Source: Truepera sp.
Lineage (GTDB): Bacteria > Deinococcota > Deinococci > Deinococcales > Trueperaceae
Assembly (NCBI GenBank): GCA_965218435.1
Contig: CBDCKW010000009.1
Location: 2,656,001-2,720,000, forward strand
DNA length: 64,000 nucleotides
Direction: 5' to 3'
In this document: positions 51,244 through 56,248 of the stretch, piece after piece
Position numbering within the stretch: position 1 is the stretch's first letter
Layout of the letters: the number at the start of each line of letters is the position of its first letter
Position numbers and translations under genes: made by a program
Notes under the pieces: model-generated
What the model was told of the DNA's origin: nothing
The model's database searches: none
Seen by the model: only the letters and a program-made list of their open reading frames with translations

Positions 51244-52070
51244 AACGCGCGAACTTGGTCGGCAGCTTTTGGCTGCATCTCTTGCTGACGCCGCTGGCTT
51301 TGTTATGGCTCGCTCCCCTATGGCTGATGGTCGTCTTTTCAACGGTGCTCGAGCCCCAAATCTTTAGCACGCCCGTACCGCTTCTACCCGGCGGCGAGTT
51401 TTTAGCCAACTTGCGCGACCTTCAGGCCGATACGAACTTTCTCCGCACGCTTCTGAACAGCGTCATGATTTCAGGGATTTATACGCTCTTATCCCTGTTA
51501 CTTACGAGCATGGCCGGATACGCTTTCGCCCGCTTTCAGTTCATGGGCCGCACCGCCATCTTCACGCTCGTCATTGCCACACTCACCATCCCGTATTTCG
51601 TCGTGGTGATTCCGCAGTACATCTTGGTCGCCCGCGACTTCTCGTTGACGAACTCATATATGGGCGTGGTGCTGCCGCTCCTCGCAAACTCACTCGGGAT
51701 ATTTTTTATGCGGCAGAACTTTTTGTCGTTGCCCCAAAGTTTGCTCGACGCCGCACGGGTTGACGGCGCGAACGAATACCGCATCTTTTTTCAGATTGCC
51801 TTGCCGCTGGTCAGCTCCGCGATGGCCGCTCTGGGCATCATCCTCTTTTTAGCGGCGTGGAACGACTACCTCTGGCCGCTCTTAATTCTGACCGAAAAAA
51901 CGATGTACACCGCGCCCGTTGCCCTAGGGACGCTGATCGGACTGACCCGGGTGTCGTGGGGCGGGATTATGGTCGGGGCCGTTTTGATGACCGGGCCGTT
52001 TTTGATTTTGTTTTTATTTTTGCAGCGGTTTTTTGTTGCGGGGATTACGGCGGGGGCGGTCAAAGACTGA
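51240..52070 (+). CDS. Sugar ABC transporter permease
   Basis: LLDAARVDGA, WNDYLWP and GITAGAVK motifs. Confidence 0.93.
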   Translation: MKRANLVGSFWLHLLLTPLALLWLAPLWLMVVFSTVLEPQIFSTPVPLLPGGEFLANLRDLQADTNFLRTLLNSVMISGIYTLLSLLLTSMAGYAFARFQFMGRTAIFTLVIATLTIPYFVVVIPQYILVARDFSLTNSYMGVVLPLLANSLGIFFMRQNFLSLPQSLLDAARVDGANEYRIFFQIALPLVSSAMAALGIILFLAAWNDYLWPLLILTEKTMYTAPVALGTLIGLTRVSWGGIMVGAVLMTGPFLILFLFLQRFFVAGITAGAVKD

Positions 52071-52088
52071 GCTTGGTTGTGTTTAGTT

Positions 52089-52568
52089 CTAAGCTCCTAC
52101 AAGTCGTCGCAACAGGGCAATTTGCCCAAAGTGATAGGCGTTATGTTTAGCGACGCTTGCCGCCAGTTTATAGCCGACAGTCCAGGCCGGTTCTTCGCCC
52201 ACACTCGGGTAAAGAATGCGGCCCAATTCTTCTCTAGCCACGCGCCCCAGTTCGGTGGTACCCGCTAAAAACTCGGCGACTAACTCAGGCCACATTTTGC
52301 TGGTGACAGTAGGCCAATTCTTATAGGGGTTTTTGAACGTTACGGGGTCAGGGCTGCGTATAAGGTCAAGGTTAAACTGAACATTGGCGTTCATATGTGC
52401 CAGGATTGCGGCGATGGAGTAAGGAAGTCCAGGCGGTACGGTGACGGCTTGCTCACCTGAAAGACCCCTTAGCAGCCGTTCGGCAGAGGCGAAGTCATGC
52501 TCGGCAGGGTCGTCGAGAAGTAACTCGAGGGTAGCAAGAGGTGGGCCGAACAAAATAGAGTCTGCCAT
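52089..52568 (-). CDS. DinB family protein
   Basis: PYSIAAILAHM and HNAYHFGQIALLRR motifs. Confidence 0.8.
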   Translation of the reverse strand: MADSILFGPPLATLELLLDDPAEHDFASAERLLRGLSGEQAVTVPPGLPYSIAAILAHMNANVQFNLDLIRSPDPVTFKNPYKNWPTVTSKMWPELVAEFLAGTTELGRVAREELGRILYPSVGEEPAWTVGYKLAASVAKHNAYHFGQIALLRRLVGA

Positions 52569-52577
52569 ATTTTATTT

Positions 52578-52608
52578 GGTAACTATATACTTGTATGACC
52601 CAGCTTTT
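52578..52608 (+). repeat. Left terminal inverted repeat
   Basis: GGTAACTATATACTTGTATGACCCAGCTTTT. Confidence 0.93.
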
Positions 52609-52625
52609 TATGCTAAAGTATAAGT

Positions 52626-53555
52626 ATGACAGCGACCGGGTTCAAGCAATTTACCAGCCTCATTCAGATGATGGAAGCGTTTCCTACCGAACAGGCGTGT
52701 ATTGACCACCTACGCGCTATCCGCTGGAAAGACGGCGCGTACTGTCCGCACTGCGGCTGTCAAAAGGTCTATGAGTTTGCCGACGGCAAAACCTTTAAGT
52801 GTGGCGATTGTCGTAAGCGGTTTTCTATCCGGGTCGGCTCTATTTTTGAGGACTCTAAAATAAGCTTGCGTAAGTGGTTTGTGGCGCTCTACCTCATTAC
52901 GGCACACTCCAAAGGTATCTCGAGCGTTCAGCTCGCTAAAGACATCGGCGTGACGCAAAAGACCGCCTGGTTTATGTTGCACCGCCTCCGCTACGCTTTC
53001 CAGACCCCGGCGTTTCAAGAACCGCTTAAAAACACGGTAGAGGTTGACGAAACCTATATCGGCGGCAAAGAAAAGAACAAACACGCCGATAAACGCACCC
53101 CCGGCACGCAGGGCCGCAACACGAAAACCAAAACGCCTGTTTTGGGGATGGTTGAGCGTAGCGGTATCGTCAAGCTCTTAAAAATGAACGGCGTCACGAA
53201 AGAGGACATTCAAAAAGCAGTGCTTGATAACGTCGCCATCGGTTCTAAGGTGATGACAGACGAATACGCCGCTTATAACGCGCTTAACTCGTTTTATTCG
53301 CATGACAGTATCAGCCACAGCATGGGTCAGTATGTGTCAGGCGACGTACACACGAACACCTTAGAGGGCTTTTTCTCACTTCTCAAACGAGGCATCATCG
53401 GCATCTATCACTTTGTCAGCGCCAAACACCTCGAGCGTTACCTACACGAGTTCGCGTTTCGTTATAACCTGAGAGCACAAAAGAACGGAGTTGGTTTTAA
53501 CGTGATGTTAGGCAACTGTAAAGGCCGTTTGACCTACAAGGGGCTTATCTCATGA
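52626..53555 (+). CDS. IS1595 family transposase
   Basis: Zn ribbon CPHC..CGDC, HTH, VEVDETYIGG, MTDE, HTNTLEGFFSLLKR and YLHEFAFRYN; TG-c-TAAAGT -10 six nt before ATG. Confidence 0.95.
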   Translation: MTATGFKQFTSLIQMMEAFPTEQACIDHLRAIRWKDGAYCPHCGCQKVYEFADGKTFKCGDCRKRFSIRVGSIFEDSKISLRKWFVALYLITAHSKGISSVQLAKDIGVTQKTAWFMLHRLRYAFQTPAFQEPLKNTVEVDETYIGGKEKNKHADKRTPGTQGRNTKTKTPVLGMVERSGIVKLLKMNGVTKEDIQKAVLDNVAIGSKVMTDEYAAYNALNSFYSHDSISHSMGQYVSGDVHTNTLEGFFSLLKRGIIGIYHFVSAKHLERYLHEFAFRYNLRAQKNGVGFNVMLGNCKGRLTYKGLIS

Positions 53556-54493
53556 CCAAGACTAAAGACGAGCAACTAACACTAGATATGGATTTTAGCG
53601 AGGCACTCGAGCGTCTTGCTAAAGTCAATACCAAAGACATAGACGCGGCGATAGCAGCCGACGAACCCGACACGCCGCCCGGTGTCGCTACCCCATTCGT
53701 TAAATGGGTCGGCGGCAAACGTAGCCTGATGGACACCTTGCTCTTAAAAATGCCTGAGACGTTCGGAGACTTTTACGAACCGTTTGTCGGCGGCGGGGCG
53801 CTGTTCTTTGAACTGGCAAGACGTAAACGTCTCACTAAAGCTCACCTGAGCGATACCAATATTGACCTTGTGTTTGCCTACACCGTCATCAAAAAAGACC
53901 CGACGGCGCTTATAGAGGCGCTTAAAGCGCACGCGGTTAAGCATAGTGATGACTACTACTATAAGGTGCGGGCTAAAAAAGACCTGCAAACCCCGGTAGA
54001 CATCGCCGCTCGCTTTATCTACCTCAATAAAACGGGTTACAACGGCCTGTACCGCGTCAATAGCAAAGGTGAGTTTAACGTCCCGGTGGGACGCTACAAA
54101 AACCCCGGCATCGTACAAGAGACTAATATATGGGCGTGCCATGAGGCGCTTAAAGTGGCTGATATTCAGTATCACGAGTTTGATACCATCACTCCGCACA
54201 CTGGCGACTTTGTATATTTTGACCCGCCGTACCATCCCAAAGACGAAACCTCGTTTACCAAGTATTCTAAGCTGGACTTTACCGAACAAGACCAAGTGCG
54301 GCTTAGGGATTTTGTCGTCAAGCTTCACAAAAAAGGCGTCAAGGTCATGCTGTCTAACTCTGACGCGCTCTTTATCAAAGACCTGTACAAAAGCAACATG
54401 TTCAAAATTGCCACCGTACAAGCGCCGCGTTTTGTAAACTGCAAACCTAATAAACGAAACGCCGTTGACGAGGTTTTAATCACTAACTACTGA
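53552..54493 (+). CDS. dam: Dam-family (D12 class) DNA adenine N6-methyltransferase with ~45-aa N-terminal extension
   Basis: KWVGGK, EPFVGGG, YLNKTGYNGLYRVNSKGEFNVPVG (Dam recognition hairpin), YFDPPY and MLSNS motifs. Confidence 0.92.
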   Translation: MTKTKDEQLTLDMDFSEALERLAKVNTKDIDAAIAADEPDTPPGVATPFVKWVGGKRSLMDTLLLKMPETFGDFYEPFVGGGALFFELARRKRLTKAHLSDTNIDLVFAYTVIKKDPTALIEALKAHAVKHSDDYYYKVRAKKDLQTPVDIAARFIYLNKTGYNGLYRVNSKGEFNVPVGRYKNPGIVQETNIWACHEALKVADIQYHEFDTITPHTGDFVYFDPPYHPKDETSFTKYSKLDFTEQDQVRLRDFVVKLHKKGVKVMLSNSDALFIKDLYKSNMFKIATVQAPRFVNCKPNKRNAVDEVLITNY

Positions 54494-54963
54494 TGACGAA
54501 AAGGGCCGCAGACCAACAGGGTGCAAACTATACCGGGAAAGTACTCGAGACGTTTGTGTGGAATCGTCTTGTCGAGCGTAACTACCAGTTTGTAGATAAG
54601 ACAAAGTTCAAAGCGGCGATGTACCTCGAGCAACCTATCTTTTCGGCTCAGGTTGACATCGGCACAAGCATTTACGGTACGAAACGCAAGTGCGACTTTG
54701 CTATCTACCATCCTGAGAAATGGCCCGAAGGGTTGGTTATCGAGTGTAAATGGCAGGAACGAAGCGGTTCAACTGACGAAAAGTACCCTTTTGCAGTGTT
54801 AAATATCAAAATGCAGTCGCCTTACAAAACTATCTTGCTCTTAGATGGCGGTGGCTACAAAAAAAGCGCCGAACAGTGGGTACGCAATCAAGTTGACGGC
54901 AAACTTTTGCACGTCTTTAATATGAGCCAATTCCAGACTTGGGTCAACAAAGGGAACTTGTGA
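54493..54963 (+). CDS. PD-(D/E)xK endonuclease, putative restriction or nicking partner
   Basis: E..(KC)DF..VIECKWQ..GSTDEK catalytic pattern; TGATG coupling to the MTase. Confidence 0.8.
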   Translation: MTKRAADQQGANYTGKVLETFVWNRLVERNYQFVDKTKFKAAMYLEQPIFSAQVDIGTSIYGTKRKCDFAIYHPEKWPEGLVIECKWQERSGSTDEKYPFAVLNIKMQSPYKTILLLDGGGYKKSAEQWVRNQVDGKLLHVFNMSQFQTWVNKGNL

Positions 54964-55022
54964 GCCGTCAGAAACAATCTACCCCTCGTGATTACCTACC
55001 AGCCGCCGAAGGAACTATGACG

Positions 55023-55292
55023 ATGGCACAAAGGCATAAAGGAATAGAGGTATACCAGACTGCTATCCCTAAAGTGCCGATAGAACAAATTAAACGCCCT
55101 GAAAGCTATCCGAATGAGCTAGACGAGCGTGAAGCTTTCCGCATTCTCAGGTATTTTGACCGTGACCGCTGGGAGCCCGTTTATATTGACGCGAATTACA
55201 ACCTGTTAGACGGTCAGCATAAACTCTGGGTAGCTCACCAAAAAGGCTACCGCTTCATAGACGCTATCATGATACGCGACCCGTTGAATTGA
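55023..55292 (+). CDS. Small ParB/Srx-like (DGQHR-like) domain protein
   Basis: VPIEQI..EPVYID..LLDGQHK; AAGGA SD 9 nt before ATG 55023 (alternative coupled GTG at 54960). Confidence 0.6.
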   Translation: MAQRHKGIEVYQTAIPKVPIEQIKRPESYPNELDEREAFRILRYFDRDRWEPVYIDANYNLLDGQHKLWVAHQKGYRFIDAIMIRDPLN

Positions 55293-55321
55293 AAGAAAAA
55301 CAGCAGGTCTATTTTCTTTAC

Positions 55322-55352
55322 AAAAGCTGGGTCACATATGTATATAGTTACC
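55322..55352 (-). repeat. Right terminal inverted repeat
   Basis: Reverse complement reads GGTAACTATATACATATGTGACCCAGCTTTT. Confidence 0.93.
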
Positions 55353-55474
55353 TTTTATTTTACGTTTTCAAGTAGAGACTTTTAAGCAGACATTTTGGCT
55401 CTGTGCAAAAGACTGTGCGGTACAAGCTAGGGTAAACTCGAGCGTTTGTAAAGGCCATTCAGAAGAGGTGAAAG

Positions 55475-56248
55475 GTGAAACATATCCGCTACCGCAACGA
55501 AAACGGCGTAAGCTGGGGAGAGCTCGAGGGGGGCACTGTCTACCCTTTGACAAACTTGCTGGGTAGACGTAGCGGCCCCACCGTCATGCTCTCCGACGTA
55601 ACGCTCCTCGCGCCGTGCGAACCCAAGAACATCGTTTGTGTCGGCAAAAACTACGCCAAACATGTGGTTGAAATGGGCGGCAGCGCCGAAGACCTACCGA
55701 AAGAACCGGGCTTATTTATCAAATCGCTGGGTACGCTCGCCAATCCTGGTGACCCGATTCCGTATCCGAGTTGGACGCAAAACCTGCACTTTGAAGGCGA
55801 GTTGGCCGTGGTCATCAGCCGAGAGATGCGAGACGTATCAGAGGAGGACGCCCTTCAGTACGTGCTCGGTTACACCTGCGCGGTAGACGTAACCGCCCGT
55901 GACAAACAGCGGAGCGATCTGCAGTGGGCGCGGGGCAAATCCGCCGACGGCTTCTGTCCGGTGGGGCCGTGGCTCGAGACCGACCTCGACACAGGTTCTC
56001 TAAGTGTTCAGACCCGGCTGGGCGGTGAGTTAAAGCAAGACGGCAACACGGCAGACCTGATCTTCTCCGTACCTAAAATCTTGTCTTATATTTCGTCTTT
56101 TTTAACGCTGGAACCGGGTGATTTAGTCTTAACCGGAACGCCGGACGGCGTAGGGCCGATGGCTGTAGGCGATAAACTCGAGGTCACCGTCGAGGGTATC
56201 GGGACGTTGGAGTGTTTTGTCGAGGCGTCCGAACGACTCGTTCCGTGA
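55475..56248 (+). CDS. Fumarylacetoacetate hydrolase family protein
   Basis: VCVGKNY, HFEGELAV, DVTARD, GKSADGFCPVGP and LTGTP motifs. Confidence 0.93.
   Translation: MKHIRYRNENGVSWGELEGGTVYPLTNLLGRRSGPTVMLSDVTLLAPCEPKNIVCVGKNYAKHVVEMGGSAEDLPKEPGLFIKSLGTLANPGDPIPYPSWTQNLHFEGELAVVISREMRDVSEEDALQYVLGYTCAVDVTARDKQRSDLQWARGKSADGFCPVGPWLETDLDTGSLSVQTRLGGELKQDGNTADLIFSVPKILSYISSFLTLEPGDLVLTGTPDGVGPMAVGDKLEVTVEGIGTLECFVEASERLVP

Follow-up and report, generated by a model that had tools for sequence, protein, structure and literature searches.

The stretch of DNA analysed here, the window, comprises 64,000 nucleotides of a Truepera sp. assembly (GCA_965218435.1, contig CBDCKW010000009.1, positions 2,656,001 to 2,720,000 of the forward strand). 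At positions 52578–55352 it contains a 2775-bp element of the IS1595 family of insertion sequences (IS), with four open reading frames (ORFs) on the same strand, encoding a transposase, an adenine methyltransferase (MTase) of Dam type, a small nuclease and a ParB-like protein named here ORF4. The features of the element and its borders are as follows.

52570..52577, no strand: left copy of the target-site duplication (TSD), TTTTATTT, an identical 8-mer on both sides
52578..52608, plus strand: left terminal inverted repeat (IR), 31 nt, part of the longest inverted pair; related elements share the end motif
52626..53555, plus strand: IS1595-family DDE transposase with zinc ribbon, 309 aa (PF12762, PF12760, NF033547)
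53552..53686, plus strand: N-terminal leader of the MTase, about 45 aa, common to the MTases of transposase-linked relatives
53552..54493, plus strand: Dam/DpnM-type (D12 class) adenine MTase, 313 aa (PF02086, TIGR00571), predicted to be GATC-specific
54493..54963, plus strand: PD-(D/E)xK nuclease, 156 aa (PF20472), predicted catalytic residues E19, D68, E84 and K86
54960..55292, plus strand: accessory ParB/Srx-like ORF4, 89–110 aa, DGQHK motif, outside the conserved core
55322..55352, minus strand: right terminal IR, from the inverted-pair search
55353..55360, no strand: right copy of the TSD, the same 8-mer as on the left

The IRs, 31 nt long and 90% complementary, form the longest inverted pair within positions 52000–56000, and the identical 8-mer at both borders (52570–52577 and 55353–55360) represents an exact 8-bp TSD. 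The transposase exceeds the cut-offs of all three profiles (PF12762, 153 bits, E 6e-45; PF12760, 49 bits; NF033547, 214 bits). The transposase and MTase genes overlap in ATGA, the MTase and nuclease genes in TGATG, and all of them are intact. A preliminary description of this DNA, made from the letters alone, had proposed a complete 2775-bp element with 31-bp IRs, a perfect AT-rich 8-bp TSD, intact frames and translational coupling of the first three genes; the coordinates and profiles bear out this architecture, and the junctions are as described. The element is present in one copy in the Truepera assembly and its G+C content is 44–51%, against about 57% for the genome. A single DDE transposase with zinc ribbon, IRs, an 8-bp TSD and passenger genes are the features of the transporter IS (tIS) of the IS1595 family. 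Such elements, e.g., MTnSag1/tISSag10 and tISCpe8, have one transposase, IRs and 8-bp direct repeats and carry passengers inside their ends (PMC5704250, excerpt). The likeness extends to IRs of about 25–31 bp, whereas the passengers in the window are a methylase–nuclease pair and not a resistance gene as in MTnSag1/tISSag10 and tISCpe8. MTase passengers are said to have been noted for IS1595 elements by Siguier in 2009 and in ISfinder, and the IR of the window element presumably resembles that of the ISNwi1 subgroup.

The flanking genes match those of the same-genus genomes G001, G004 and G005, where nothing matching the element lies between them, and among 31 related genomes just two have a Dam above the cut-off, the Truepera assembly bearing the element being one of them. 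Both observations indicate that the insertion is recent and foreign. A further insertion was found in contigs of two sequencing runs, X1 and X2, made from the same sample, possibly the source sample, and thus not independent. In both runs, the left end of the element is joined to another flank, which ends in CATATAAA; a junction of the right end with a flank that starts with CATATAAA is listed for X1 alone. No differing letters between these contigs and the window element are listed over 53051–55352. These junctions suggest that an identical copy was inserted at a second site, where it has an 8-bp duplication of its own, the two junctions being paired through the common 8-mer. The second-site flanks were not found in the Truepera assembly, which places the copy in another strain or replicon; a search of 111 genomes of the family did not recover the right flank either. 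An IR–IR joint, as expected for a circular intermediate, was not found in contigs of three runs, although contigs drop rare forms. The same sample also contains a second IS1595 variant, about 94% identical (matching 52581–53066), with a left end starting with GGC and a different flank.

The MTase reaches 281 bits against TIGR00571 (cut-off 115) and matches PF02086. Its nearest solved structures are M1.DpnII (2dpm, E 2.4e-63) and then EcoDam (E 1.5e-34). In EcoDam, GATC is contacted by K9, Y119, N120, L122, R124 and P134 (PMC4417163, excerpt), and these residues align to K51, Y163, N164, L166, R168 and P178 of the window MTase. The contact residues are invariant in all 67 aligned MTases, except for Y or F at 163, and the DPPY motif is intact, making GATC specificity a strong prediction. 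Since this is the sole PF02086 (D12-class) gene in the Truepera assembly, the element would plausibly add GATC methylation to its host, and in this form the proposal that it could rewrite the host methylome is plausible. The MTase leader has the pattern L-x-M-x-F-x-E-A-L-x-R, which is kept in transposase-linked relatives and retained also in some relatives without transposase (L001, L006, L022). The leader was considered as a known family fused elsewhere to other cargo; this was rejected, as the search gave no match besides the leader itself.

The nuclease belongs to PF20472 (PDDEXK_11; 118 bits, cut-off 23.7, E 3e-34), a family with 95 close homologues and 1,282 representatives at 50% identity (E ≤ 1e-3), whose members are mostly labelled hypothetical in source annotations. 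Most of the best 150 of the 1,282 representatives have 130–190 aa, and by this comparison about 150 aa is the family's native size. The protein had initially been regarded as unusually small; this is right when its 156 aa are set against the about 280–300 aa of DpnII-like enzymes, but the size is native to its own family. All 65 aligned sequences have D68, K86, Q88, G92, E96 and K97, 64 have E84 and 58 have E19, and purifying selection is strong (nonsynonymous to synonymous divergence, dN/dS, e.g., 0.009/0.52 and 0.024/0.62). The AlphaFold model (predicted local distance difference test, pLDDT, 90) is most similar to residues 125–285 of the type II enzyme BstEII (PDB 9ibq; Z 10.4, root-mean-square deviation 3.5, 135 residues aligned), which is also the only Foldseek match at E ≤ 1e-3 (E 9.8e-4). 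Next come Bax1 (Z 8.7), Can2 (Z 8.4), BsoBI (Z 7.7) and PspGI (Z 7.1); MutH and Sau3AI are not among the fold matches listed. The nuclease has the fold of its catalytic core in common with BstEII, BsoBI, PspGI and NgoMIV (Z 6.9–7.7 for the latter three). In contrast to BstEII, with which identity is 13%, the window nuclease has no N-terminal subdomain and a different predicted site. Neither the nuclease nor its profile gave a meaningful match when compared by sequence with solved structures. No PADLOC model matches the window nuclease; among 137 relatives, the REase_II model is matched weakly by 10 and PD-Lambda-5_A by one (E 6.5e-4).

R-M (restriction–modification) systems of the DpnII type, acting on GATC, have already been described (PMC12707154, excerpt). 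The element resembles DpnII/MboI in its MTase, nearest to M1.DpnII, and in its nuclease, colinear with the C-terminal half of the DpnII family PF04556. This profile is matched by 27 of 65 relatives at E ≤ 0.05, and four relatives pass its cut-off, over profile positions 138–255 of 278. Direct alignments of the nuclease to two DpnII-family proteins gave weak scores (E 2e-4 in a four-sequence search). The weak alignments are colinear over the motifs N-x-T-G-x-x-(L/M)-E, D-F/D-A, E-x-(K/N)..G-S, D-G-x-G-(Y/W) and V-F-N. Segments of the N-x-T-G and G-S type carry base recognition in related type IIP enzymes, and in the window nuclease a conserved helix and a segment starting at W87 have aligned counterparts in DpnII-family enzymes, namely N-x-T/S-G-x-x-M-E and G-G-G-S. 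From these alignments we read the nuclease as the catalytic (C-terminal) half of a DpnII-like enzyme standing alone. It differs from DpnII/MboI in lacking the N-terminal half, and from the DpnII-family E-T-N in having a canonical E-x-K. Unlike the DpnII-type locus on pSRQ700, the element has a single MTase; a second MTase of DpnA type is absent from it, and elsewhere in the genome only a 49-aa partial match was found. By analogy, the element would work like a DpnII system, while length and the second MTase set it outside DpnII membership. With type IIP systems in general it has in common an adjacent MTase with intact motifs and a separate PD-(D/E)xK endonuclease with an intact active site.

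The relatives of the element were collected by a scan of GTDB genomes, in which at least 498 relatives of the nuclease were confirmed among 526 candidate stretches. The best 80 genome loci were analysed together with 27 viral loci, 107 in total. A Dam match lies within 5 kb of the nuclease in 74 of the 80 genome loci, nearly always directly upstream, and in 30 of the 80 an IS1595 transposase match is present as well. All three genes, transposase, dam and nuclease, are intact in 33 loci (27 genome, 6 viral) spanning 14 NCBI phylum labels, five of them groups of the Candidate Phyla Radiation (CPR), with seven loci unlabelled. Twenty-two of these 33 loci have a recognisable IR pair, giving element lengths of 2302–3344 bp, and 14 of the 22 have an exact 8-bp TSD; the 14 TSDs are 87.5% A+T. 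For L021, the first scan gave an additional 24/24 IR with an 8-bp TSD. The right end of 17 of the 22 complete related elements lies 23–32 bp past the nuclease gene. Trees of transposase, MTase and nuclease for 34 elements have their main clades in common, and tree distances correlate (transposase–MTase 0.73, transposase–nuclease 0.74, MTase–nuclease 0.87). This agreement between gene trees shows that the three genes are inherited together; it does not imply a function. It also sets the family apart from the IS1595 tIS examples, as the passengers co-diverge with the transposase over deep time. The nearest relative of the window element is L001, from a cyanobacterial metagenome-assembled genome (MAG; support 99). 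PF20472 matches occur in 22 of 301 genomes of the window's phylum, a tally that includes the unpublished genome G255, on which no further result depends, and in none of five genomes of the same genus; distant members in this phylum also adjoin Dam genes, in other gene orders. The proposal of a self-mobile MTase–nuclease unit is supported by this co-conservation and by the co-inheritance with the transposase.

Among 52 copies without an intact transposase, none is surrounded by both left and right IR remnants, and five have the right IR only. INPHARED phages gave no match. The one match among annotated plasmids is a Dam and PD-(D/E)XK pair in Alicyclobacillus, and no annotated transposase lies within 3 kb of it. 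A scan for the exact IR pattern in metagenomes found one stretch with an end (L205), with no match to the four element proteins, and in viral sequences one locus, already among those collected.

Distant phage members of the nuclease family pair with two unrelated families of adenine MTases. Of the 27 viral loci, 14 carry a D12 Dam, 8 a PF05869 phage Dam and 3 an MT-A70 MTase, while 2 begin at a contig edge. An adenine MTase thus persists as neighbour across three unrelated families, a pattern that speaks for protection by methylation more than for a specific complex of the two proteins. Convergent and reversed orders of the two genes exist, and one natural Dam–nuclease fusion (P0119, 432 aa) occurs among the best 150 of the 1,282 representatives. 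Six of the 80 genome loci have no Dam: one is cut by a contig edge, in three the nuclease is truncated at its N terminus, one has the substitution D95Y and sits in a host with E. coli-type Dam, and one is intact (L073). The PF05869 or MT-A70 pairs are found in phage loci L089, L091–L095, L099, L100, L102, L103 and L106. Some phage-locus proteins have helix-turn-helix (HTH) N-termini or, by eye only, ParB-like ones, and in P0169 an N-terminus that looks ParB-like by eye is apparently joined to the nuclease.

Taken together, the cargo of this IS1595 tIS is probably a self-mobile, compact GATC type II R-M unit with a minimal endonuclease. It is proposed that the Dam-type enzyme methylates GATC and that the 156-aa nuclease would cut GATC left unmethylated. 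The nuclease may read DNA itself, through the helix A11-N12-x-T14-G15-x-x-L18-E19 and the segment W87-Q88-x3-G92-S93-x-D95-E96-K97, and would probably act as a homodimer. On arrival in a new host, the gene order and the coupled stops and starts could let methylation precede the build-up of nuclease. An established unit would restrict incoming DNA that lacks methylation and make loss of the element costly. Copies without transposase would be stranded or domesticated versions, and ORF4 one of several interchangeable passengers.

The GATC content of the element seems at first to agree with such a function. The window element has no GATC, against 5.9 in synonymous shuffles (P 0.0025), and in the host genome GATC is the lowest 4-mer (rho 0.61). 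The value of the zero count is weakened, since GATC depletion is lineage-wide also where dam is missing. The explanation of the host depletion as a footprint of the system was rejected, because relatives without dam have rho 0.36–0.89 and the insertion is recent. As a separate observation, viral contig L097, with a Dam–nuclease pair, has no GATC in 10.3 kb, where 36 are expected; several phage loci do not avoid GATC.

Several points weigh against the proposed R-M unit. The host-lineage relatives without dam are themselves GATC-depleted, related elements keep 1–16 GATC sites, and pooled observed/expected ratios for GATC are 0.46 in the transposase gene (lowest of 16 palindromes), 0.65 in the MTase gene (5th) and 0.80 in the nuclease gene (8th), TCGA and GTAC ranking ahead of GATC in these two genes. 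In the fold ranking, Bax1 and Can2, which are not restriction enzymes, stand close behind BstEII. The window nuclease itself has no PF04556 match in the Pfam search, and a pairwise profile comparison by hhalign matches it weakly to a DpnII-family protein (probability 2%, E 0.022). The intact orphan nuclease of L073 has no clear Dam in its MAG. A further point comes from six transposase-less Anaerolineae copies, in which dam carries a tract of G10–G15 just after motif I (10–15 nt; L025:4307, L026:4105, L027:3271, L028:440, L032:580, L037:4329). The tract puts Dam out of frame in five of the six and in frame in one, while the nucleases are all intact. A second GATC-type D12 MTase was not found in G302, G305 and G306, where the other D12 genes inspected are of other types, and no full DpnA-like gene stands out in the poly-G MAGs, although these MAGs are incomplete. 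One would not expect a lethal cutter to be compatible with this Dam-off state, unless the tract lengths are assembly errors, the frameshift is polar or there is an inhibitor. A poly-G dam beside an intact nuclease is a candidate for a phase-variable Dam. L019 and L024 start at runs rich in G/C, close to this position of dam.

These copies also speak for regarding the nuclease as an attenuated or single-strand cutter, i.e., a slow enzyme or one that nicks GATC in its un- or hemimethylated state, which would harm fast-replicating incoming DNA and spare a Dam-off host, so that the pair would serve competition between mobile elements and not classical restriction or addiction. The absence of the 125–137 N-terminal residues of BstEII and DpnII, the intact nucleases beside frameshifted Dam in five MAGs, and the weak GATC avoidance in relatives, with none in several phage loci, all favour such an enzyme. 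Yet the poly-G state may be an assembly error or may have a polar effect on the nuclease gene, most orphan nucleases carry truncations or mutations, and the residues for catalysis and for predicted recognition hardly vary. We regard this explanation as unlikely.

Less probable, and in our view improbable, is the idea that Dam serves the element, timing or damping transposition through methylation of its ends or shielding it against host GATC restriction, with the nuclease as a sequence-tolerant toxin or helper. Dam control of the IS10 and IS50 ends provides a precedent, and in one clade, comprising 6 of the 22 related IR pairs (L036, L039, L043, L045, L054, L085), GATC lies within both IRs at the element ends, overlapping a TTGAC-like hexamer. 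The window element and the remaining 16 of the 22 relatives, though, have no GATC in their IRs, and the dam–nuclease pair persists in 44 of the 80 genome loci without a transposase match. It is very improbable that the nuclease lacks intrinsic specificity and acquires it by binding Dam, in a two-subunit R-M complex like split type IIG/IIB enzymes. The natural fusion, the tight gene coupling and the missing N-terminal half of DpnII would fit a Dam-guided nuclease, but such a fusion is single among the best 150 representatives, the nuclease pairs with three unrelated MTase families in gene orders that include convergent and reversed ones, and the segments aligning with DpnII-family motifs are kept in the nuclease.

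We give a low probability to a more speculative reading: an old, cross-phylum IS family would consist of epigenetic switches, each with Dam and the smallest DpnII-like endonuclease. The element would secure its own maintenance and force GATC methylation upon hosts that lack dam, Dam of one clade would mark GATC in the element's own ends and so set the timing of transposition, and stranded copies would become poly-G phase-variable Dam switches. A small Cys/His protein, phrog_3941, may be the regulator making the Dam-off state survivable. It is the commonest extra gene, found beside dam–nuclease in 12 of the 107 loci, in three positions (L002, L026, L027, L029, L032, L035, L054, L066, L074, L077, L081, L090), and it is absent from the window element. 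The protein has one or two repeats and is fused to the nuclease once (P0211), and it is a better candidate for a third component than ORF4.

What is new here is the link of PF20472 to adenine MTases and to IS1595. In the openly searchable literature no description of the element family or of PF20472 was found, ISfinder, REBASE and subscription papers being outside this scope; the excerpt of PMC6563490 contains nothing on IS1595. The preliminary suggestion of an undescribed system is best narrowed to an unusual variant of type II R-M, and does not extend to a new class of system. For a large family of uncharacterised nucleases the link offers a testable function. As no PADLOC model matches the window nuclease, such loci would likely be listed by defence annotation as orphan Dam genes. 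Should the 156-aa protein prove able to cut GATC alone, it would be a minimal type II enzyme, for which the DpnII-like N-terminal half is dispensable, and possibly a useful small reagent. The family also provides a concrete vehicle for the cross-phylum spread of Dam and R-M genes, an autonomous IS of 2.3–3.3 kb, as compared with plasmids, phages and composite transposons.

ORF4 had been proposed as a mini-ParB belonging to a three-gene system. Its start may be GTG 54960, overlapping the nuclease stop, or 55017 or 55023, and its end is 55292. ORF4 has no Pfam match; Atlas gave 0.95 to clusters with ParB_N on 29–45% of members, and a four-sequence profile matches the ParB-domain structure 5k5d (E 5e-4). 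It is thus probably a ParB/Srx-type domain, with K in place of the usual R of the DGxHR motif of ParB/Srx domains. As in phage ParB–MTase fusions, a close homologue weakly matches the N-terminal part of an MTase PHROG (E 0.006); unlike them, ORF4 stands alone and is rare in the element family. It has two close homologues besides itself and a homologue in 1 of the 107 related loci, there between the transposase gene and dam, and for these reasons it was rejected as a core third gene. The ParB-like label is thus modestly supported, and of the three cargo genes whose co-occurrence was checked, MTase and nuclease are co-conserved and ORF4 is not. Other elements carry different small genes in its slot.

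Some minor observations concern expression and the surroundings of the element. A scan for promoters and terminators gave signals at chance level. A TANNNT hexamer within 52614–52626 stops 6 nt short of the transposase ATG, where a clear ribosome-binding site is lacking, and such a hexamer precedes the transposase in 10 of 33 relatives, counted without a control set; TANNNT without a ribosome-binding site is the pattern of leaderless transcripts. Two further IS1595 transposase remnants exist in the same assembly: L136 (C5:658290-659620) is 76–85% identical and interrupted by another IS, and L137 (C9:983683-984450) is 36% identical and adjoins an N6/N4 MTase gene. The element itself is inserted one base upstream of the start codon of a minus-strand DinB-family gene (52089–52577), which is thereby cut off from its original upstream region. 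In G004 (L133) and G005 (L134), this intergenic region contains other inserted genes or IS elements, which suggests an insertion hotspot.

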